Positions 3,190 through 63,361 of a stretch of DNA of 63,428 bases are shown here, one piece after another. The notes beneath the pieces are model-generated. The model was not told the DNA's origin, searched no databases, and saw nothing but the letters and a program-made list of their open reading frames with translations. This DNA is from Escherichia coli (GTDB lineage: Bacteria > Pseudomonadota > Gammaproteobacteria > Enterobacterales > Enterobacteriaceae): the NCBI RefSeq assembly GCF_024223415.1, contig NZ_CP100504.1. One strand, given 5' to 3'. Position 1 is the stretch's first letter. The number at the start of each line of letters is the position of its first letter. The position numbers and the translations under genes were made by a program.

Positions 3190-4422
3190 TCATGTTGCCG
3201 CCAGCGGGCGACAGATCGCCCGCAGGGCGACGGCGCTGCACAGCGGAAACAGCGCCAGCAGAAGCCAGGGATAAACCGCCTGCGGCGACGGAATGAGCGC
3301 CTGGTCAAGTAAATGACCGAGCAGTAAATTCCCGGCTAACACCGCGCACCCTCCTGCGGTGGCGAGCGCTCCGTAGTGGGCGCCCAGCGTCGACTCCTCG
3401 GCGAACAGCGGGATCAGATCCTTGGCTGCGGGCACTAACAGCATCTGGCCGAGGGTGAGCAGCGTGACAAAACCAGCCGCCGGCATTAACCGCAGCCAAC
3501 TTTCGGCGGGTGGGGCGGCGGCGAATAACGCCACGCTGGCAAAGGAAGCCGACAGCAGCAGAAAGCCCACCGGCAGGATGCGCACGGCGCCCATTCGCCG
3601 GGCGAAGCGGGCGAGAGGGAGCTGGAGGGTGATAATCAACAGCGAGGCCAGCATAAAGAGCGGCGCCAGATCCTGCTCGCGGCCGCCGGAACGTTGGATC
3701 TCCACCGGCAGAGCGAGGTAGAGTTGGTTGTAGCTCAACAGCCATGAGCTGTAGGCGAGAATAAACGCGACAAAGCGCGGCTGGCGCAAAGGCGTCCACC
3801 ATGGGACTCGTCTGCGCGTTGTTGTCGTGTGCCCGTCGGCGGGCAGACCGAAAAAGAGCACCGCCAGCGCCAGAAGAAATATTCCCGCGCCGGCGAGGGC
3901 GATATGTCGAAAGCCGATCCCGCTCAGCACGCCTCCGGCCACCGGGCCGATCACCGCTCCCAGTTCACCGCATACCGCAAACAGCGCAAACCACTCGGCG
4001 CGGCTGCGTTTCCCGTTGGCCTGGCTGTGGGTACCGGCCCGCGCCAGCAGGGCCTCTATCGACGGGGAGAACAGGGCGCCGCCGACGCCGGTCAGGCAGG
4101 CGCCAAGGATAATGGCCCACAGCGACGCCCCGCACGCCAGCAGGAGAAAACCGGCGACGCGAACGACGCAGCCGGCGAGAATGATCGCCTTAGCGCCATA
4201 GCGGTCGGCCAGCGTCCCGCCGAGGATAAACATCCCCTGTTGGGAGAAGGTACGCAGCCCGAGGATCAGGCCGATAAGTCCGCCTGAGAGCAGCATGTCG
4301 TCGCGCAGGAAGAGGGCGAGGAAAGGTACGACCGCGTAAAAGCCAATATTAAAAACGAACTGGCTTCCCAGTAACACCGGAGGCCAGAGGGTTGCCGCAG
4401 GGCGCAGGGAGAAAAGAGGCAT
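3190..4422 (-). CDS. eitD: MFS transporter, EitD-like
   Basis: Multi-pass membrane protein; likely start is the internal Met (MPLFSL) 12 nt after the upstream ATPase stop; last gene of a four-gene operon in eitABCD order. Confidence 0.55.
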   Translation of the reverse strand: MPLFSLRPAATLWPPVLLGSQFVFNIGFYAVVPFLALFLRDDMLLSGGLIGLILGLRTFSQQGMFILGGTLADRYGAKAIILAGCVVRVAGFLLLACGASLWAIILGACLTGVGGALFSPSIEALLARAGTHSQANGKRSRAEWFALFAVCGELGAVIGPVAGGVLSGIGFRHIALAGAGIFLLALAVLFFGLPADGHTTTTRRRVPWWTPLRQPRFVAFILAYSSWLLSYNQLYLALPVEIQRSGGREQDLAPLFMLASLLIITLQLPLARFARRMGAVRILPVGFLLLSASFASVALFAAAPPAESWLRLMPAAGFVTLLTLGQMLLVPAAKDLIPLFAEESTLGAHYGALATAGGCAVLAGNLLLGHLLDQALIPSPQAVYPWLLLALFPLCSAVALRAICRPLAAT

Positions 4423-4433
4423 ATCCGCCCAAC

Positions 4434-5198
4434 CTAAACGATGAAATGAATGTGCTTTTTGCCGTGGTAAGGGGAGATCTCGATTTTGGTTTTCACCCGG
4501 AAAACGTCCCACAGCAGCGCTTCGGACAAAATCTCCTCCGGCGTCCCGCTGGCGAGGATCTGCCCCTGCTGCATCACGATCAGCGAATCGCAGAACATCG
4601 CGGCATGGTTAAGATCGTGAATGGCCACAATGCTGGTTACCGGCAGCTCGCTGATCAACTGCATTAACTGCATCTGATGGTGTATATCCAGATGGTTGGT
4701 CGGCTCATCCAGCAGGATTTCGCTCGGGCTCTGCGCCAGCGCGCGGGCGATATGCACCCGCTGCCGCTCGCCGCCGGAGAGGCTTAACCATCCCTGTTCG
4801 CTTTTCTCCAGCATAGCTACCCGCTGCAGCGCGGCGGCAATCGCTTCGTCATCCTGAGCGCTCCAGTTTGAGAACGGAGAGTGGTGGGGAATGCGTCCCA
4901 GGCGCACGACGTCGCGCACCCGCATATTGGCCTCGGTCATGCCGTGTTGCTCGACGCAAGCCACGCGGCGGGCGAGCTGCTTTTTCGCCATCCGGGCGAT
5001 ATCCTGGCCGTCGAGGGTGACGCGACCTGCATCCGGGCGGCGCAGGCCCGCCAGAACGCGCAGCAGCGAGGATTTGCCGCAGCCGTTGGGCCCCAGCAGT
5101 CCGACCGTTTCGCCGCGCGGCACCCGCAGCGAGACATTATTGACGATGACCTTTTTGCCTGCCTTCCAGGTGATATTTTCAGCGCAAATACTCATCAC
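4434..5198 (-). CDS. eitC: ABC transporter ATP-binding protein (iron-siderophore type), EitC-like
   Basis: 254 aa with Walker A GPNGCGKSS, ABC signature LSGGERQR and Walker B LLDEP. Confidence 0.6.
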   Translation of the reverse strand: MMSICAENITWKAGKKVIVNNVSLRVPRGETVGLLGPNGCGKSSLLRVLAGLRRPDAGRVTLDGQDIARMAKKQLARRVACVEQHGMTEANMRVRDVVRLGRIPHHSPFSNWSAQDDEAIAAALQRVAMLEKSEQGWLSLSGGERQRVHIARALAQSPSEILLDEPTNHLDIHHQMQLMQLISELPVTSIVAIHDLNHAAMFCDSLIVMQQGQILASGTPEEILSEALLWDVFRVKTKIEISPYHGKKHIHFIV

Positions 5199-13125: not shown

Positions 13126-13363
13126 GTGATGTTCTTTAAAAATCAGGATTTATTTCAGGCTCCGGCAATACGCATTTATGTGTTCTGTCAGTCATCCGGC
13201 TGGCAGGTAATGAGAACGCAGGAACAGAAGGAGGAAAACACCGGAGAACGTCAGACGCAGATATGAAAAAAGCAGGTCAGGGACCTGCTTAATCCACGCC
13301 GTAAGAATTGCGCAACCAATTTTGACGGCATTGTTAACCAATTTGTCATAAGGAGTTTCATTT

Positions 13364-13594
13364 ATGACGGTAAGTATTGTTTCACCTTCCGCAGCGGCTG
13401 TAAAGCCCCGCCGTCATCCCCGTTTCAGACGCGAAGACATCCCCGCGCCGGAAATTGACCCCGTGCTGAAAGCCTTCGGGCGACACATAGCCCGGAGTTT
13501 TCACCGGGGGCGTGGTGTACACATCCCCGCCATGAAAAACACGGCCTTCGGGCAGGTGCTCCGCACACTCGAACTGAAACGCGCTTTTAACTGA
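13364..13594 (+). CDS. small basic hypothetical protein
   Basis: 76-aa ORF with RBS aggag 8 nt upstream; first ORF downstream of repeat copy 1. Confidence 0.4.
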   Translation: MTVSIVSPSAAAVKPRRHPRFRREDIPAPEIDPVLKAFGRHIARSFHRGRGVHIPAMKNTAFGQVLRTLELKRAFN

Positions 13595-20559: not shown

Positions 20560-20739
20560 TGCGGCAACAATCACACGGATTTCCCGTGAACGGTCTGAAT
20601 GAGCGGATTATTTTCAGGGAAAGTGAGTGTGGTCAGCGTGCAGGTATATGGGCTATGATGTGCCCGGCGCTTGAGGCTTTCTGCCTCATGACGTGAAGGT
20701 GGTTTGTTGCCGTGTTGTGTGGCAGAAAGAAGATAGCCC

Positions 20740-20810
20740 CGTAGTAAGTTAATTTTCATTAACCACCACGAGGCATCCCTATGTCTAGTCCACATCAGGA
20801 TAGCCTCTTA
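20740..20810 (-). ncRNA. sok: Sok antisense RNA (approximate)
   Basis: Placed by position antisense to the mok/hok leader, from the known organisation of hok/sok loci; exact ends not determinable by eye. Confidence 0.35.
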
Positions 20811-20993
20811 CCGCGCTTTGCGCAAGGAGAAGAAGGCCATGAAACTACCACGAAGTTCCCTTGTCTGGTGTGTGTTGATCGTGTGTCTCACACTGTTGAT
20901 ATTCACTTATCTGACACGAAAATCGCTGTGCGAGATTCGTTACAGAGACGGACACAGGGAGGTGGCGGCTTTCATGGCTTACGAATCCGGTAA
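20781..20993 (+). CDS. mok: Mok (modulation of killing) overlapping reading frame
   Basis: 70-aa ORF overlapping hok in another frame, as in R1 hok/sok. Confidence 0.55.
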
Positions 20994-24809: not shown

Positions 24810-24910
24810 CAATTAACCACATAAAGGTTATATTAATTATGTGGTTAATGCCACGTTAAAAATTTAGTTTGAATCGCCAATGCAGGGAGTAGCACCTCCC
24901 TGCATTGACT
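24810..24910 (-). ncRNA. finP: FinP antisense RNA (approximate)
   Basis: Two inverted repeats in the traJ leader (ttaaccacat...atgtggttaa; tgcagggag-tagcac-ctccctgca) just upstream of the traJ RBS. Confidence 0.5.
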
Positions 24911-24938
24911 GTCCATAGAATCCTTTGAGGAGGTTCCT

Positions 24939-25590
24939 ATGTGTGCAATGGATCGTAGAGAAAGAGCACTCATTCGTCAATTACATTTCCCTAACGACTT
25001 AAGAGAGAACATTTCATTATTGAAATATCCCGTATGTATACGTTTTGAAGACGGTTCTTTTATAGGAACAAATCACAGCTTCGAGCGATTTATTAAATTA
25101 TCATATTGTTCATGTGATGAATGGTTTGAGCATTTGACTTTAGAATCCAAGTTACAACTATCAAGATCTGAGATGGATTCATATTTTTCAACTTATGGTG
25201 TAAGTTATATTAATAATGTTTCAATTAGTGCTATGTCATGGAGCATGGTTATCGAAACACTCAATACAAATGAAGGTTGTTTTTTCGTCTGGCGATTTAT
25301 TGAGTCAAATGACAAAAATATTTCAACATCTTTGATTTCTAAATCTAATGATGGGTTGATATTTTTTCTGGGGAATATATAGATATTGAACCCTATCTTG
25401 TAGGGTTTAGCCATTATTATTCTGCAGCAGTGACAAAAATTAGTATATCTAAATCCAAGAAGAAAACGATGAATTTTTTCAAAATGAATGGGTTTAGTTC
25501 CAGAGATCACTGGTTGGATGAAATGCTCAGGTCTGAAAAAATACTATTTCTATATGATAGAGTAAAAGGAATATTAAAAAACAAGTGTTA
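24939..25590 (+). pseudogene. traJ: transfer activator TraJ, apparent frameshift
   Basis: 147-aa ORF stops at 25382, but the +2 frame is open from 25350 to 25590; the frame change coincides with a T6 run (25363-25368); combined length ~215 aa. Confidence 0.55.
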
Positions 25591-38947: not shown

Positions 38948-38971
38948 ATCTGTTCCCGTAAGGAGGCATTG

Positions 38972-39394
38972 ATGGCGCTGACAAAGAAGCAGCGGGAAAA
39001 ACTGCGTATGAAATTCGGCGGTCGTTGTGCGTACTGCGGCTGTGAACTGCCGGAAAAAGGCTGGCATGCCGACCATGTTCAGGCGGTGCTCCGCAAGTCA
39101 GAGCAGTGCATGAAGGCTGCAGAAAAGCGCATTTTCAGGCTGAAATCCACCGGTGATGTTTTCAGACCGGAGGCCGACTGTCCGGAAAACCTCGTCCCGG
39201 CCTGTGCGCCGTGCAACCTGCTGAAAACAACATATTCGCTGGAGATGTTCAGAACGCAGGTGTCCCTGCAGGTTGAACGGGGGCGAAGAAGCAGCGTGAA
39301 TTTCAGGACCGCAGAACGGTTCGGGCTGATTCAGGTGGTGAACAAACCAGTCGTGTTCTGGTTTGAGCAATATCAGAGGGAGAGTGAGGTATGA
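38972..39394 (+). CDS. HNH endonuclease
   Basis: 140 aa with CAYCGC...WHADHV...PACAPCN (HNH fold with paired Cys motifs); RBS aggagg. Confidence 0.75.
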   Translation: MALTKKQREKLRMKFGGRCAYCGCELPEKGWHADHVQAVLRKSEQCMKAAEKRIFRLKSTGDVFRPEADCPENLVPACAPCNLLKTTYSLEMFRTQVSLQVERGRRSSVNFRTAERFGLIQVVNKPVVFWFEQYQRESEV

Positions 39395-45696: not shown

Positions 45697-48515
45697 ATGA
45701 AGTTTATGTGATTGCCGGTGGTGAGTGGTTGCGGAATAACCTGAATGCCATTGCCGCCTTTATGGGAACCAGAACGTGGGATTCCATTGAAAAAATTGCG
45801 CTCACATTGTCTGTTCTCGCGGTGGCCGTAATGTGGGTACAGCGGCACAACGTGATGGATTTGCTGGGCTGGGTGGCCGTGTTTGTGCTTATCAGCCTGC
45901 TGGTTAATGTCCGTACATCGGTGCAGATTATTGATAACAGTGACCTGGTCAAAGTTCACCGGGTGGATAATGTGCCGGTCGGACTGGCGATGCCACTTTC
46001 ACTGACGACCCGTATCGGGCATGCAATGGTGGCCAGTTACGAGATGATCTTCACGCAACCGGACAGTGTCACCTACAGCAAAACGGGGATGCTGTTTGGC
46101 GCAGAACTGGTATCAAAAAGCACCGACTTTTTGTCCCGTAATCCGGAAATCGCCAATCTTTTCCAGGATTATGTGCAGAACTGCGTGATGGGGGATATTT
46201 ACCTGAACCACAAATATACGCTGGAGGAGCTGATGGCCTCCGCTGATCCCTACACGCTGATTTTTTCCCGCCCCAGCCCGCTGCGGGGCGTTTATGACAG
46301 CAATAATAATTTCGTAACCTGTAAGGACGCTTCGGTTTCGCTGAAAGACAAGCTGAATCTGGACACACAGAGTGGCGGAAAAACCTGGCATTATTATGCC
46401 CAGCAGCTATTTGGCGGACGCCCTGATCCTAACCTGCTGTTCAGTACGCTGATTGGCGACAGTTACAGTTACTTCTATGGCTCAAGTAAATCAGCCAGCC
46501 AGATCATCCGCCAGAATGTCACCATCAATGCGCTGAAGGAGGGGATCACCAGTTATGCCGCACGTAATGGTGATTCGGCCAGCCTGGTGAATCTGGCCAC
46601 CACGTCATCGATGGAGAAACAACGTCTGGCACATGTATCAATCGGTCATGTGGCGATGCGGACACTGCCCATGACGCAGACCATCCTGACGGGGATCGCC
46701 ATCGGTATTTTCCCGCTCCTGGTACTGGCGGCTGTATTCAACAAACTGACGCTGTCCGTCCTGAAAGGCTATGTGTTTGCCCTGATGTGGTTGCAGTCAT
46801 GGCCAATGTTGTACGCCATTCTGAACAGCGCCATGACATTTTATGCAAAGCAGAATGGTGCACCGGTGGTGCTCTCGGAAATTTCACAGATACAGCTGAA
46901 ATACTCCGATCTGGCTTCCACTGCCGGGTATCTTTCCATGATGATCCCGCCATTATCCTGGATGATGGTCAGGGGGCTCGGGGCAGGATTTTCCAGTGTG
47001 TACAGCCATTTCGCTTCCTCTGCTATCAGCCCGACCGCCAGTGCAGCAGGCAGTGTGGTTGACGGTAATTACTCCTACGGCAACATGCAGACGGAGAACG
47101 TGAACGGCTTCAGCTGGAGCACCAACAGCACCACGTCGTTTGGTCAGATGATGTACCAGACCGGCAGTGGCGCAACTGCCACACAGACCCGTGACGGTAA
47201 TATGGTGATGGATGCAAGCGGAGCGATGTCCCGGTTACCGGTCGGCATCAATGCAACGCGTCAGATTGCGGCGGCACAACAGGAAATGGCCCGGGAAGCA
47301 TCGAACAGAGCAGAAAGTGCCCTGCATGGGTTCAGCAGCAGTATTGCCAGTGCCTGGAACACGCTCAGTCAGTTTGGTTCTAACCGGGGGAGCAGTGATT
47401 CTGTCACCGGTGGTGCTGACAGTACGATGAGTGCACAGGACTCCATGATGGCCAGCCGTATGCGCAGTGCAGTGGAAAGCTATGCGAAGGCGCATAATAT
47501 CAGTAATGAGCAGGCGACTCAGGAACTGGCATCCAGAAGTACGAGAGCTTCTGCCGGGATGTATGGAGATGCTCATGCTGAATGGGGGGTTAAACCTGGA
47601 ATTCTTGGTGTTGGTGGCGGCTTAGGTGTTAAAGGTGGTGGTCGCGCTGGTATTGATTGGGAAGATAATGATGCGCATACGGCAAGTAGTAATACTCAGT
47701 CGAGCCATAATGCTCGTCATGATATCGATGCCAGAGCTACACAAGACTTTAAAGAGGCCAGCGATTACTTTACCAGTCGCAAGGTCAGTGAGTCCGGCAG
47801 CCATACTGACAATAATGCTGATTCCCGTGTGGATCAGTTGTCTGCAGCCCTGAATTCAGCGAAGCAGAGTTACGACCAGTTCACGACGAATATGACCCGC
47901 AGCCATGAATATGCTGAAATGGCATCCCGTACTGAAAGCATGAGTGGGCAGATGAGTGAAGACCTGTCGCAACAGTTTGCACAGTATGTGATGAAACACG
48001 CGCCGCAGGATGCCGAAGCTATTCTGACAAACACCAGTTCACCGGAGATTGCAGAACGCCGTCGGGCTATGGCGTGGTCTTTTGTTCAGGAACAGGTGCA
48101 GCCTGGTGTTGATAATGCCTGGCGTGAATCCCGTGGGGACATCGGTAAAGGAATGGAGAGCGTACCTTCGGGTGGTGGCAGCCAGGATATTATTGCTGAT
48201 CATCAGGGGCATCAGGCCATTATTGAGCAAAGAACGCAGGACAGTAATATCCGTAATGATGTAAAACATCAGGTTGATAATATGGTCACAGAATACCGAG
48301 GCAATATCGGAGATACTCAGAGCAGCATACGTGGCGAAGAAAATATTGTAGGAAGACAGTATTCTGAACTACAAAATCACCATAAAACAGAGGCATTATC
48401 TCAGAATAATAAATATAATGAAGAAAAATCGGGTCAGGAAAGAATGCCCGGGGCTGACAGTCCACAGGAACTGATGAAAAGAGCAAAGGAGTATCAGGAT
48501 AAGCACAAGCAATAA
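45693..48515 (+). CDS. traG: TraG (pilus assembly, mating-pair stabilisation, entry-exclusion target)
   Basis: 940 aa with N-terminal polytopic domain and large periplasmic C-terminal domain. Confidence 0.95.
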   Translation: MNEVYVIAGGEWLRNNLNAIAAFMGTRTWDSIEKIALTLSVLAVAVMWVQRHNVMDLLGWVAVFVLISLLVNVRTSVQIIDNSDLVKVHRVDNVPVGLAMPLSLTTRIGHAMVASYEMIFTQPDSVTYSKTGMLFGAELVSKSTDFLSRNPEIANLFQDYVQNCVMGDIYLNHKYTLEELMASADPYTLIFSRPSPLRGVYDSNNNFVTCKDASVSLKDKLNLDTQSGGKTWHYYAQQLFGGRPDPNLLFSTLIGDSYSYFYGSSKSASQIIRQNVTINALKEGITSYAARNGDSASLVNLATTSSMEKQRLAHVSIGHVAMRTLPMTQTILTGIAIGIFPLLVLAAVFNKLTLSVLKGYVFALMWLQSWPMLYAILNSAMTFYAKQNGAPVVLSEISQIQLKYSDLASTAGYLSMMIPPLSWMMVRGLGAGFSSVYSHFASSAISPTASAAGSVVDGNYSYGNMQTENVNGFSWSTNSTTSFGQMMYQTGSGATATQTRDGNMVMDASGAMSRLPVGINATRQIAAAQQEMAREASNRAESALHGFSSSIASAWNTLSQFGSNRGSSDSVTGGADSTMSAQDSMMASRMRSAVESYAKAHNISNEQATQELASRSTRASAGMYGDAHAEWGVKPGILGVGGGLGVKGGGRAGIDWEDNDAHTASSNTQSSHNARHDIDARATQDFKEASDYFTSRKVSESGSHTDNNADSRVDQLSAALNSAKQSYDQFTTNMTRSHEYAEMASRTESMSGQMSEDLSQQFAQYVMKHAPQDAEAILTNTSSPEIAERRRAMAWSFVQEQVQPGVDNAWRESRGDIGKGMESVPSGGGSQDIIADHQGHQAIIEQRTQDSNIRNDVKHQVDNMVTEYRGNIGDTQSSIRGEENIVGRQYSELQNHHKTEALSQNNKYNEEKSGQERMPGADSPQELMKRAKEYQDKHKQ

Positions 48516-49910: not shown

Positions 49911-49997
49911 ATATGAAAACACTGAGCGGTTGTGCAAATTCTTTGTGCGACCGTGAAGTGTTGCCGGCGAAGCCGGGATCTTCCGGAGAAAGTCATT

Positions 49998-50735
49998 ATG
50001 ACATCAGACAATATCGCTGAATATGTTGGTGAGAATAATCAATTTACTGAGAAGCCTGTAACTGAATACCCCCCGGTGATACAGGATAATACAGTGACGA
50101 CTAAAGATTATCTGTACAGCAATAATATTGATACTGACCTTTTAGTGGTTATCGGAGGGCTTATTGTTATATTGTTTCTCATGATGCTTATCATGTACTT
50201 TATTAATTCTCTCAGGCATAAGGAATTAACTGAAATACTGACAAAAATATCTTTTCCTGAAAAATCCGGGAGCAATTCGCTTAAACCGGAAGCGGTCAGC
50301 TGTAATTTGTTGTCCCTGTGTGTGCTGGCACCGGTATTCTGTACACCCAGAAAGCTGGCAGAAGTCTCCAGGGAGATCATCGTGGCGAGTGCGCAGGAAA
50401 TTGCATGGACGCCGGGGAGCAGTCGTATTGATGGCCACCAGGCGGAGAATATCACCTGGGCGATTTCATCGCAGTCTCCTGCCGATAAGTATGATCTCAT
50501 CAATAAAACGTCCCGTGTTTCTCCTGACAGTGGCCGTTTTTATGAACCGGACACAGTTCTGGATCACCGTGAACGGGTACGCCTTTTTATTCAGATCCAG
50601 TTTCCGCATGGGAGTGACTGGTCTGAAGTATTGCGCCTGACTGACATTGTTACAGAGAAGGTCTCTTCCGGCAGGACTGCAGGCGGGTATCACCACCGGC
50701 ATACAGGGTACACCTGGTCTGTTTCTGTGAATTAA
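49998..50735 (+). CDS. hypothetical single-pass membrane protein (cargo between traT and traD)
   Basis: ~245 aa from MTSDNIAEY; one TM helix ([22 protein letters not shown]); AT-rich; preceded by motif copy A. Confidence 0.55.
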
Positions 50736-50785: not shown

Positions 50786-52777
50786 ATGAGTTTTAACGCA
50801 AAGGATATGACCCAGGGCGGTCAGATTGCGTCCATGCGTATCCGCATGTTCAGCCAGATCGCCAATATCATGCTTTACTGCCTGTTTATTTTTTTCTGGA
50901 TACTCGTTGGTCTGATTTTATGGGTAAAAATAAGCTGGCAGACGTTTGTGAACGGCTGTATTTACTGGTGGTGTACCACGCTGGAAGGCATGCGGGATTT
51001 AATCAAGTCCCAGCCAGTATATGAGATTCAGTATTACGGCAAAACCTTCCGGATGAACTCTGCCCAGGTACTGCATGATAAATATATGATCTGGTGCGGT
51101 GAGCAGCTATGGTCCGCATTCGTTCTGGCGTCTGTCGTGGCCCTGGTTATTTGCCTGATCACCTTCTTTGTTGTCTCCTGGATTCTGGGGCGTCAGGGTA
51201 AACAACAGAGCGAAAATGAAGTCACAGGTGGTCGTCAGCTGACAGACAATCCGAAAGACGTTGCCCGGATGCTGAAAAAAGACGGCAAGGACTCCGATAT
51301 CCGGATTGGCGACCTGCCGATTATCCGGGATTCCGAAATCCAGAACTTCTGTCTGCACGGCACGGTCGGGGCCGGTAAGTCGGAGGTTATCCGTCGTCTG
51401 GCCAACTACGCCCGTCAGCGCGGTGATATGGTGGTGATTTATGACCGTTCAGGGGAATTTGTTAAAAGTTACTATGATCCCTCCATCGATAAAATCCTGA
51501 ATCCGCTGGATGCCCGCTGTGCCGCATGGGATTTGTGGAAGGAGTGTCTGACACAGCCGGATTTTGATAATACCGCAAATACTCTGATCCCTATGGGTAC
51601 AAAAGAGGACCCGTTCTGGCAGGGTTCAGGACGTACCATTTTTGCGGAAGCGGCGTACCTGATGCGTAATGACCCCAACCGCAGCTACAGCAAACTGGTG
51701 GACACACTGCTTTCCATCAAAATCGAAAAACTGCGTACCTTCCTGCGTAATTCTCCGGCGGCCAACCTGGTGGAAGAGAAAATTGAGAAAACGGCGATTT
51801 CCATCCGTGCTGTGCTGACCAACTACGTGAAAGCCATCCGTTACCTGCAGGGGATTGAGCATAACGGTGAGCCCTTCACCATACGTGACTGGATGCGTGG
51901 TGTCCGGGAAGATCAGAAAAACGGCTGGCTGTTTATTTCGTCGAACGCCGACACCCATGCCTCCCTGAAGCCGGTGATCTCCATGTGGCTGTCCATTGCC
52001 ATTCGTGGTCTGCTGGCAATGGGAGAAAACCGTAACCGTCGTGTGTGGTTTTTCTGTGATGAGTTACCCACGTTACACAAACTGCCGGACCTGGTGGAGA
52101 TCCTGCCGGAAGCCCGTAAGTTCGGTGGCTGTTATGTGTTTGGTATCCAGTCCTATGCCCAGCTGGAAGATATCTACGGTGAGAAAGCGGCGGCCACGCT
52201 GTTTGACGTCATGAACACCCGTGCTTTTTTCCGTTCCCCGAGCCATAAGATTGCAGAGTTCGCTGCCGGTGAGATTGGTGAGAAAGAGCACCTGAAAGCC
52301 AGCGAGCAGTATTCCTACGGTGCTGACCCGGTACGTGACGGGGTATCGACCGGTAAGGATATGGAGCGTCAGACGCTGGTCAGTTATTCCGACATTCAGT
52401 CTCTGCCGGATCTGACCTGCTATGTCACTCTGCCCGGACCGTATCCGGCAGTAAAACTCTCCCTGAAATATCAGGCACGACCGAAGGTCGCTCCGGAGTT
52501 TATTCCGCGTGACATCAACCCGGAAATGGAGAACCGTCTGAGTGCCGTACTTGCCGCAAGGGAAGCAGAAGGTCGTCAGATGGCCAGCCTCTTTGAACCG
52601 GAGGTTGCCTCCGGAGAAGATGTGACTCAGGCTGAACAGCCACAACAGCCACAACAGCCACAACAGCCACAACAGCCACAACAGCCACAACAGCCGGTGT
52701 CTCCTGCCATCAACGATAAGAAGTCAGATTCAGGTGTGAATGTTCCGGCAGGGGGATCGAGCAGGAGCTGGAAATGA
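50786..52777 (+). CDS. traD: type IV coupling protein TraD
   Basis: 663 aa with N-terminal TM segments, Walker A GTVGAGKS and a C-terminal QPQ repeat tail. Confidence 0.95.
52637..52690. repeat. 9-bp tandem repeat (cagccacaa)n inside traD
   Basis: About six tandem units encoding the (QPQ)n tract in the TraD C-terminal tail. Confidence 0.9.
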
Positions 52778-52974
52778 AACCGGAAGAAGAGATGGAACAG
52801 CAACTGCCACCCGGGATCAGTGAATCCGGTGAAGTGGTGGATATGGCCGCTTATGAGGCATGGCAACAGGAAAATCATCCGGACATCCAGCAGCAGATGC
52901 AGCGTCGTGAAGAGGTGAACATTAATGTGCACCGGGAGCGTGGGGAGGATGTTGAGCCGGGAGATGATTTCTGA
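52774..52974 (+). CDS. small acidic hypothetical protein between traD and traI
   Basis: 66-aa ORF overlapping the traD stop and ending exactly at the traI start. Confidence 0.45.
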
Positions 52975-55900
52975 TGATGAGTATCGCGCAGGTCAGATCG
53001 GCCGGAAGTGCCGGTAACTATTATACCGACAAGGATAATTACTATGTACTGGGCAGCATGGGAGAACGCTGGGCCGGCAGGGGGGCTGAACAGCTGGGAC
53101 TGCAGGGCAGTGTCGATAAGGATGTTTTTACCCGTCTTCTGGAGGGAAGGCTGCCGGACGGAGCGGATCTAAGCCGCATGCAGGATGGCAGTAATAAGCA
53201 TCGTCCCGGCTACGACCTGACCTTCTCCGCCCCCAAAAGTGTCTCCATGATGGCCATGCTCGGGGGGGACAAACGTCTTATTGAAGCACATAACCAGGCC
53301 GTGGACTTTGCTGTTCGTCAGGTGGAGGCGCTGGCCTCCACACGGGTGATGACGGACGGACAGTCAGAAACGGTACTGACCGGTAATCTGGTGATGGCAC
53401 TGTTTAACCACGACACCAGTCGCGATCAGGAACCACAGTTACATACGCATGCGGTGGTGGCTAATGTCACGCAGCATAACGGTGAGTGGAAGACACTGAG
53501 CAGTGACAAAGTGGGGAAAACGGGGTTCATTGAGAATGTGTACGCTAATCAGATTGCCTTTGGCAGGCTCTACCGGGAAAAACTGAAAGAGCAGGTTGAG
53601 GCGCTGGGCTATGAAACCGAAGTGGTGGGTAAGCACGGTATGTGGGAGATGCCGGGCGTACCGGTGGAGGCCTTTTCCGGACGCTCACAGACTATCCGGG
53701 AGGCCGTCGGGGAAGATGCCTCGCTGAAATCCCGGGATGTGGCGGCACTGGATACGCGAAAATCCAAACAGCACGTCGATCCTGAAGTCAGAATGGCTGA
53801 ATGGATGCAGACGCTGAAGGAAACCGGGTTCGACATCCGGGCATATCGTGACGCGGTGGATCAGCGTGCGGAGACCCGCACGCAGGCGCCCGGGGCTGTT
53901 TCACAGGAGGGGCCGGATGTGCAGCAGGCGGTGACACAGGCGATTGCCGGATTAAGTGAACGAAAAATGCAGTTTACGTACACGGACGTGCTGGCCAGAA
54001 CGGTCGGTATACTGCCGCCGGAAAATGGTGTGATTGAACGGGCACGCGCCGGTATCGATGAGGCCATCAGTCGTGAGCAGCTTATCCCCCTCGACCGTGA
54101 GAAGGGGCTGTTCACATCAGGAATTCATGTGCTCGATGAGCTGTCCGTCCGGGCACTCAGTCGTGACATCATGAAACAGAACCGGGTGACCGTACATCTG
54201 GAGAAAAGTGTCCCCCGGACGGCTGGTTACAGCGATGCGGTCAGTGTTCTGGCACAGGACCGTCCGTCGCTGGCCATTGTGTCCGGGCAGGGCGGTGCAG
54301 CCGGGCAGCGTGAGCGGGTGGCTGAACTGGTCATGATGGCCCGGGAGCAGGGGCGGGAGGTGCAGATTATCGCCGCTGACCGTCGCTCGCAGATGAACCT
54401 GAAGCAGGATGAACGGCTGTCCGGTGAGCTGATAACCGGACGTCGTCAGCTGCAGGAGGGCATGGCCTTCACGCCGGGCAGTACTGTTATCGTCGACCAG
54501 GGCGAAAAACTCTCCCTGAAAGAGACGTTAACCCTGCTGGACGGTGCCGCACGTCATAACGTACAGGTCCTGATAACCGACAGCGGGCAGCGAACCGGTA
54601 CAGGCAGTGCACTGATGGCCATGAAGGATGCCGGGGTGAACACGTATCGCTGGCAGGGCGGAGAACAGCGACCGGCCACCATCATCAGTGAACCGGACCG
54701 GAATGTCCGCTATGACCGGCTGGCCGGAGATTTTGCGGCCAGCGTGAAAGCCGGAGAAGAGAGCGTGGCACAGGTCAGCGGGGTACGGGAACAGGCCATA
54801 CTGACACAGGCCATTCGCAGTGAGCTGAAAACACAGGGCGTGCTCGGACACCCGGAGGTGACCATGACGGCACTGTCACCGGTCTGGCTGGACAGCCGGA
54901 GCCGTTATCTGCGGGATATGTACCGACCGGGGATGGTGATGGAGCAGTGGAACCCGGAGACACGCAGTCATGACCGCTATGTTATCGACCGGGTGACGGC
55001 GCAGAGTCACAGCCTGACCCTGCGGGATGCGCAGGGCGAAACGCAGGTGGTGCGTATTTCCTCCCTGGACAGCAGCTGGTCGCTGTTCCGGCCGGAAAAA
55101 ATGCCGGTGGCAGACGGCGAGCGACTGAGGGTGACAGGGAAAATTCCCGGACTCCGCGTCTCCGGCGGTGACCGCCTGCAGGTGGCATCCGTCAGTGAAG
55201 ATGCGATGACGGTTGTTGTGCCGGGGCGGGCTGAACCGGCCACCCTGCCTGTGGCTGATTCACCGTTCACGGCACTGAAGCTGGAGAACGGCTGGGTGGA
55301 AACGCCCGGGCATTCCGTCAGCGACAGTGCGAAGGTTTTTGCCTCCGTCACACAGATGGCAATGGACAACGCCACCCTGAACGGTCTGGCCCGCAGTGGT
55401 CGTGATGTCCGGCTGTATTCTTCACTGGATGAAACCCGTACTGCGGAAAAACTTGCCCGCCATCCCTCCTTTACGGTGGTTTCTGAGCAGATAAAGGCGC
55501 GTGCCGGTGAGACATTGCTGGAAACCGCTATCAGTCTGCAGAAAGCCGGGCTTCACACGCCGGCACAGCAGGCTATTCATCTGGCCCTTCCTGTGCTGGA
55601 AAGTAAAAACCTGGCCTTCAGCATGGTGGACCTGCTGACAGAGGCGAAGTCGTTTGCTGCAGAAGGAACCAGTTTTACTGAACTGGGAGGGGAAATCAAT
55701 GCGCAGATAAAACGCGGTGATTTACTGTATGTGGATGTGGCAAAAGGCTATGGCACAGGCCTGCTGGTTTCCCGTGCGTCGTATGAGGCAGAAAAGAGCA
55801 TTCTTCGCCATATTCTCGAAGGTAAGGAGGCGGTCACGCCGCTGATGGAGAGAGTACCTGGCGAACTCATGGAGAAACTGACATCAGGACAGCGTGCCGC

Positions 55901-59755: not shown

Positions 59756-59968
59756 ATGAATGGATTCAGAAACAGTTCACGGAACGGTCAGGTCTGGCGC
59801 TGGCAGCGTGCCGGAAGCCGGGCCGTTATTCTGGAGGTCAGTGGACGCTGGATGGAAGCGGCAGAAGCATGGCGACGGGCTGCCGGTGTTGCACCCCGGA
59901 CAGACTGGCAGCAGTTTGCCCGAAAAAGGGCTGAACAATGCCACCGACGCTGCCGGGGAAGGGTGTAA
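59756..59968 (+). CDS. small Arg/Trp-rich hypothetical protein
   Basis: 70-aa ORF with strong RBS agaggag 8 nt upstream. Confidence 0.45.
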   Translation: MNGFRNSSRNGQVWRWQRAGSRAVILEVSGRWMEAAEAWRRAAGVAPRTDWQQFARKRAEQCHRRCRGRV

Positions 59969-60212
59969 CGAAAAAGCAGCCTTCATTACTCCAGGGATTC
60001 AGAAGGCTGAATAATGCATGAGATTTGCTTTTTTTAATATCCGGTCGGGCAGTATGACCGGACAGTTCTGAGTAGCACAGAGTTTTTTCCGTATTAAGTC
60101 GTGATTTTATATTTTGTGATTAATTTCGCAAAATAAGGTGTTATTCAGTGTGTGCTGCGATATTCAGGATTACCTGAAATACAGGTGCCATTTATCTGAT
60201 ATGGAGAATAAT

Positions 60213-62250: not shown

Positions 62251-62375
62251 AATAGTCAGCAACAGGGAATGTGGTATTATCGCGGCGGGTGTCTGAGCCT
62301 TTCTGGTTCAGGCAAGACGCAGGTACCAGAAATGCGAAGACCCCACTTGTTAATCCATTAACTCGTGAGGTCTGC

Positions 62376-62582
62376 ATGAAGTACTTGAACACTACTGATT
62401 GTAGCCTCTTCCTTGCAGAGAGGTCAAAGTTTATGACGAAATATGCCCTTATCGGGTTGCTCGCCGTGTGCGCCACGGTGTTGTGTTTTTCACTGATATT
62501 CAGGGAACGGTTATGTGAACTGAATATTCACAGGGGAAATACAGTGGTGCAGGTAACTCTGGCCTACGAAGCACGGAAGTAA
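62376..62582 (+). CDS. srnB: SrnB (Hok/Gef-family membrane toxin locus)
   Basis: 68-aa ORF MKYLNTTDCSLFLAERSKFMTKYALIGLLAVCATVLCFSLIFRERLCELNIHRGNTVVQVTLAYEARK; Hok-like core starts at MTKYAL; a GC-rich fold-back region follows. Confidence 0.8.
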   Translation: MKYLNTTDCSLFLAERSKFMTKYALIGLLAVCATVLCFSLIFRERLCELNIHRGNTVVQVTLAYEARK

Positions 62583-63169: not shown

Positions 63170-63265
63170 CTGATCGTTTAAGGAATTTTGTGGCTGGCCA
63201 CGCCGTAAGGTGGCAGGGAACTGGTTCTGATGTGGATTTACAGGAGCCAGAAAAGTGAAAACCCC
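63170..63265 (-). ncRNA. copA: CopA antisense RNA (approximate)
   Basis: Stem-loop-rich region between repA2 and tap; placed by analogy with R1/R100 copy-number control; ends not determinable by eye. Confidence 0.4.
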
Positions 63266-63361
63266 GATAATCTTCAGCAAGTTTGGCGACTAAGAGAAGA
63301 TTAACGGGGCCATCTAAAAACCGTATAGCCAACAATTCAGCTATGCGGGGAGTATAGTTAT

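Follow-up and report, generated by a model that had tools for sequence, protein, structure and literature searches.

The small acidic ORF between traD and traI of an Escherichia coli plasmid is very probably a frameshift-detached TraD tail

Results

A small acidic ORF at the traD-traI junction

We analysed a 63,428-nucleotide stretch of Escherichia coli DNA (contig NZ_CP100504.1 of assembly GCF_024223415.1; hereafter the window), which appears to be an entire IncFII plasmid of ~63.4 kb, linearised at repA. A sequence-only reading of this stretch had drawn attention to a 66-aa, strongly acidic ORF lying between traD and traI. The ORF is present as described. It occupies 52774..52974 on the + strand with an ATG start (as seen from the ORF list and the sequence), and contains 18 Asp and Glu residues against 5 Lys and Arg (pI 4.15, net charge about -13). 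The overlaps reported at its two ends could also be read directly from the sequence: its ATG (52774-52776) overlaps the TGA (52775-52777) of the 663-aa TraD ORF as ATGA, and its own TGA (52972-52974) overlaps the traI ATG (52974-52976) as TGATG. Dozens of similarly sized ORFs occur in the ORF list of the window, and the length of the 66-aa ORF, being common by chance, carries no weight by itself.

The features of the locus are given below.

50786..52777, + strand: truncated traD frame, 663 aa, with the last six codons (SSRSWK) and the stop out of frame (Pfam, NF010254, TIGR02759)
52635..52695, + strand: perfect 9-bp tandem repeat AACAGCCAC, 6.8 copies, encoding (QQP)n of the TraD C-terminal domain (TRF)
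52751..52755, + strand: G5 homopolymer, the site of a 1-bp deletion, with G6 in relatives (regular-expression search, alignment to relatives, G insertion)
52763..52767, + strand: AGGAG, Shine-Dalgarno-like, 6 nt upstream of the ATG at 52774; fortuitous, within traD codons for EQEL (read from the sequence)
52774..52974, + strand: the reported 66-aa ORF, the TraD C-terminus cut off from its gene (all 66 residues as in F TraD 652-717; NF010254 670-735)
52927..52971, + strand: C15 discrimination motif, encoding the final 15 residues, which match F TraD 703-717 throughout (sequence; function from PMC7555446, PMC3159463, PMC10939261)
52948-52971, + strand: TraM-binding tail by literature, the last eight residues DVEPGDDF (sequence identity to F TraD; PMC7555446, PMC3159463)
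52974..58244, + strand: traI relaxase/helicase, intact, 1756 aa, its ATG overlapping the tail TGA (TGATG) as in relatives (ORF list; pF374-3, pSCU-105-1 and pGZM7d junctions)

At the traD-tail locus we found no signals of separate expression: the Rfam search gave nothing, and promoters and terminators were matched no better than by chance. Elsewhere in the window, Rfam identified the following RNAs, the first four being antisense RNAs of the pHK01 type.

13267-13369, - strand: AS-pc01
46412-46497, - strand: AS-traG
55823-55899, - strand: AS-traI
59865-60048, - strand: AS-pc02
24839-24945: FinP/traJ 5'UTR
63253-63344, - strand: CopA
20665-20841 and 62287-62443: two copies of sok

Two further ORFs of the window were also observed. 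One (49932-50735) lies between traT and traD, where relatives annotate a 245-aa 'hypothetical protein' that has no Pfam match. The other, of 141 aa (38969-39394), is directly upstream of traN; at the corresponding place pGZM7d has an annotated protein with an HNH endonuclease signature motif, an accessory insertion within the tra operon.

The ORF matches the C-terminal end of TraD

When we searched the 66-aa ORF against protein families, it matched the C-terminal positions 670-735 of NCBIfam NF010254, the 735-position model of F-type TraD (E=1.9e-32). Positions 1-666 of this model were matched by the 663-aa ORF upstream (1529.7 bits), which also matched TIGR02759. The Pfam domains TraD_N, TrwB_AAD_bind and TraG-D_C were all found in the 663-aa ORF. 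The Pfam search returned no family for the 66-aa ORF; the TraD domains of Pfam do not reach into the tail, and it was NCBIfam that placed it. A sequence search of PDB chains of 20 residues or more gave only chance-level matches (E=1.3). Against F-plasmid TraD, the ORF was identical to residues 652-717 at all 66 positions (E=3e-44), and its C-terminus carries the acidic tail motif DVEPGDDF with its aromatic end. It is this homology to the TraD C-terminus that makes the ORF non-random.

Since the 663-aa and 66-aa ORFs match adjoining parts of NF010254, they are two pieces of one gene. Three-frame translation indicated that the tail frame is open already 5' of the ATG at 52774, and the TraD frame, instead of joining the N-terminal membrane domain to the C-terminal tail without interruption, is broken at the G5 run (52751-52755). 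These comparisons make it almost certain that the 66-aa ORF is a TraD tail detached by a frameshift and not a gene of its own, a judgement on the identity of the ORF that is kept separate from the question of error or mutation. As written, the locus reads as a split or pseudogenised traD.

One missing G splits the traD frame

We aligned the locus at base level with the three closest plasmids, pbAPEC5202, pF374-3 and pSCU-105-1. The window reads GGCAGGGGGATC, with five G residues at 52751-52755, where all three relatives have six; this is a single gap, and the flanks are identical. When one G was inserted in silico, a continuous TraD of 729 aa was obtained, 96.2% identical to F TraD from end to end, and ending at the traI start. 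At the annotated junctions of pF374-3, pSCU-105-1 and pGZM7d, a single traD CDS likewise ends at the traI start (in F, it ends at a vapBC insert). The end of the 66-aa ORF at the traI start, overlap included, is therefore the normal traD-traI junction.

The split arises as follows. F-like traD is normally a single open frame that reaches the traI start codon. With the run of six G residues now five, the traD frame shifts, picks up six wrong codons and stops at 52775-52777. The original frame, which has its next Met codon at 52774, stays open as far as the usual traD stop, and an ORF finder reports this part as a separate small acidic ORF. The homology, the exact 1-bp site, the full-length TraD on addition of a G, and the rarity and scatter of the split form (see below) are demonstrated; the biological meaning of the split is the step that we infer.

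The neighbouring AACAGCCAC repeat varies from 0 to 18 copies across relatives, and the window has fewer than pbAPEC5202, pF374-3 or pSCU-105-1.

The split allele is rare and scattered

The G6 31-mer was found in 3,542 PLSDB plasmids, and the G5 30-mer in 40, as well as in 9 of 5,426 complete E. coli genomes. The 5' 1,815 bp of the window traD is 100% identical to that of pbAPEC5202 and 99.95% identical to that of pF374-3, both of which are G6. Over the same 1,815 bp, identity between the window and the G5 records is 95.4-99.1%, and these records represent many different backgrounds. As the G5 alleles sit on unrelated backgrounds and the nearest relatives are G6, the G5 of the window is a private event or an error, and not an inherited architecture. 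PGAP/RefSeq labels the G5 allele as a 'traD, frameshifted' pseudogene in pE2855-5 and p1RM8082, and in pAR-0427-1 two products are annotated instead, a truncated TraD and the 66-aa hypothetical protein WP_001408788.1.

The exact 66-aa product was present on at least 1,000 contigs, and we considered whether this abundance was the sign of a circulating frameshift allele. We rejected this, since 8 of the 10 loci checked for context were G6, the product standing alone there because the scaffold has a 100-N gap in the QQP repeat or because traD is truncated. The other two loci were G5, with a fragmented traI.

In metagenome scaffolds, the 100-N gaps fall in the AACAGCCAC/QQP repeat. The WP_001408788.1 cluster has 797 members, TraD tail fragments from 47 to 94 aa that are named 'hypothetical protein', 'traD domain protein' or 'TraD, partial'; this cluster is annotation noise from contig breaks in the QQP repeat and not a protein family. 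We also observed that CP050214.1, a 6.6-Mb record, has only the traD tail and a 327-aa traI fragment (positions 3896-5184 of excerpt L025), with prophage-like genes (DicB, YdfE) on one side and a fimbrial usher on the other. This looks like a relic of an F-like element.

The ORF is not a gene of its own, nor trbH

The small ORF had been suggested to be a remnant, or a small regulator or chaperone coupled to relaxase translation, at the place where F carries the larger trbH. An independent small gene of this kind would agree with the position of the ORF and its tight stop/start overlaps, which resemble those of an operon member, and with the presence in F of an extra ORF, trbH, at the equivalent junction. 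However, the sequence is 100% identical to the TraD C-terminus and has no Pfam family of its own. The standalone form is found in ~1% of plasmids, whose backgrounds are unrelated and whose assemblies are for the most part rich in errors, and most database calls of the 66-aa product are 100-N gaps or truncated traD genes with G6 intact. BLASTP of the ORF against the 239-aa trbH ORF of F gave no similarity (E=14, a two-residue match). Relatives having an intact full-length traD together with a separate extra copy of the ORF were not seen, and neither was a standalone ORF conserved across diverged plasmids with a selection signature of its own. Together, these observations effectively refute an independent regulator, chaperone or trbH remnant. 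The word remnant is right only in that the ORF is a remnant of traD itself (F TraD 652-717, 66/66), and not of trbH or of a gene of its own; nothing was found in support of a regulator or a chaperone.

Conservation in relatives had been proposed as the check, with its absence as the refutation. The sequence is indeed highly conserved, but inside a continuous traD (3,542 G6 records); the standalone ORF is rare and sporadic (40 G5 records), being neither conserved in relatives nor inherited by a lineage. Lack of conservation is thus a misleading test here, as the sequence is conserved as a part of traD.

That F carries the larger trbH at this junction was borne out, as a 239-aa + strand ORF exactly fills the 0.7-kb traD-traI insert of F. 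The traD-traI gap of F is 716 bp and holds vapBC and trbH, whereas the window lacks such an insert and its tail overlaps the traI start. In the F plasmid (NC_002483.1; positions 3735-4454 of excerpt L007), the trbH ORF is antisense to an annotated vapC/vapB toxin-antitoxin pair, and it may be a spurious ORF opposite this toxin-antitoxin module. Only 8% of MOBF12 plasmids have a detectable trbH (PMC5102898). A vapBC/antitoxin insert at the same traD-traI junction was also observed in p1RM8082 and pP63.

Sequencing artefact or real deletion

G/C homopolymers are classic sites of indel errors, and the missing base lies in one. The frameshift could be a sequencing or assembly artefact, with a plasmid that is truly G6, makes a normal 729-aa TraD, and has the small ORF only in its deposited sequence. 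This is consistent with the observation that 11 of 13 sampled G5 PLSDB plasmids have more frameshifts in traD and/or in the first 650 codons of traI, and that traI is in fragments as well in the two G5 contigs reached through the protein collection. Among 241 million metagenome records, there was a single contig with the G5 30-mer, at 1.5x coverage, a count that comes without a G6 denominator. The nearest relatives, identical in the 5' part of traD, being G6, points the same way. The error-laden G5 plasmids and the lone 1.5x metagenome contig suggest that the site is an error hotspot.

The window itself argues on the other side. In comparison with pGZM7d, the G-run was the sole place in ~33 kb of tra sequence with an isolated 1-bp indel in a coding region, all the other tra ORFs of the window are full length, and all nine comparable G/C runs of six or more agree in length with the relative. 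Furthermore, pE2855-5 and pAR-0427-1, records from RefSeq complete genomes, are clean apart from the G5 frameshift. The clean window argues against a generally noisy assembly, and a real mutation is possible. Weighing both sides, we place the two at roughly even chances, with the artefact slightly ahead and a real deletion at just short of even. If the base was lost by artefact, the plasmid makes a normal 729-aa TraD, and nothing is left to explain.

Possible separate translation or recoding of the tail

We further considered what a real G5 allele might express. Both pieces could be made, a tail-less 663-aa TraD and a free 66-aa peptide, the latter by termination-reinitiation at the ATGA with help from the AGGAG; such a peptide might keep ribosomes flowing into traI, and might occupy the TraD-binding groove of TraM. 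The AGGAG (52763-52767) has a 6-nt spacer to the ATG at 52774, which overlaps the TGA at 52775-52777, the peptide would carry the complete TraM-binding tail (PMC7555446), and the window is otherwise clean. However, the Shine-Dalgarno-like sequence and the ATG are traD codons in every F-like traD and so no evidence of start-site selection, and there is no lineage including the window along which the split form has been passed down. The isolated tail peptide binds TraM only in a manner described as 'extremely weak in solution' (PMC3159463), and a free tail would be unable to couple the relaxosome to TraD. Expression of both pieces from a real mutation therefore seems unlikely.

A more elaborate version would be a natural split coupling protein, in which tail-less TraD has relaxed specificity, self-transfer is much lower and foreign plasmids are mobilised, while the reinitiated 66-aa peptide occupies TraM and preserves coupling into traI, the G6 run serving as a slippage-prone on/off switch. 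We regard this as quite improbable.

Alternatively, some full-length TraD could be restored from G5 if ribosomes slipped by -1 at a low level, or if transcription slipped on the G-run. The GGG GGA context, as read from the sequence, would permit re-pairing of tRNA-Gly in the -1 frame. Against this, there is no canonical X XXY YYZ heptamer, the base before the run being A, and the RNA fold downstream of the G-run was no better than that of shuffled controls (z=0.19). The run of 5 nt is also short for transcriptional slippage, and the G5 allele is not conserved. Recoding is accordingly very improbable.

Discussion

Predicted effects of a real deletion

In F TraD, the tail residues Asp710-Phe717 insert into a groove of the TraM tetramerisation domain, and this contact couples the oriT-bound relaxosome to the secretion channel (PMC7555446, PMC3159463). 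The C15 motif stimulates cognate transfer by 10^4-10^5-fold; deletion of the last 15 residues lowers transfer, with residual transfer remaining, and delta-C15 TraD gains recruitment and transfer of the heterologous pKM101 oriT substrate (PMC10939261). C-terminal truncations of TraD also appear in Sastre et al. 1998, in so far as that work is cited in PMC10939261.

If the deletion is real, TraD would keep its membrane and ATPase domains, and would lose the acidic tail by which it docks to TraM at oriT. The 663-aa product, lacking ~72 native C-terminal residues, should behave like the published truncations. From these, self-transfer would be expected to fall roughly 10^4-10^5-fold without being abolished, and the exclusion of foreign substrates would be relaxed. 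A real deletion would in this way bear on estimates of the mobility of the plasmid, with lower self-transfer and a more promiscuous substrate recruitment being predicted.

Meaning for annotation

The pattern is already known. It is of a kind ordinary for pseudogenes or sequencing errors, and annotation pipelines flag it as it is; the 66-aa ORF implies no new biology. It does call for caution in annotation. The 66-aa 'hypothetical protein' WP_001408788.1 is a TraD fragment that arises from a frameshift, from a scaffold gap in the QQP repeat, or from truncation.

Comparison with known systems

With F trbH, the ORF has in common only the map position between traD and traI. The sequences are unrelated, and the trbH of F lies in a 0.7-kb insert, antisense to the vapBC pair, while the window has no insert.

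With F-plasmid TraD, the resemblance is complete over the tail, at 66 of 66 residues, and the position directly upstream of traI, the acidic, reportedly unstructured character and the ...EDVEPGDDF end are common to both. In the window, the tail differs in being detached by a 1-bp deletion (G6 to G5), and in starting at an internal Met codon.

The frameshifted traD genes of RefSeq (pE2855-5, p1RM8082 and pAR-0427-1) have a G5 allele and a 66-aa product identical to those of the window. Their traD backgrounds differ, however, with 95.4-97% identity to the window in the 5' part, and their events are therefore independent of that of the window, with no shared ancestry.

The last comparison is with the engineered TraD truncations, delta-C15 and the 148-residue delta-CTD (PMC10939261). 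The window differs from these in that its loss of ~72 residues is intermediate and that six foreign residues are added; if the frameshift is real, its 663-aa product would, like both of them, be without the C15 motif.
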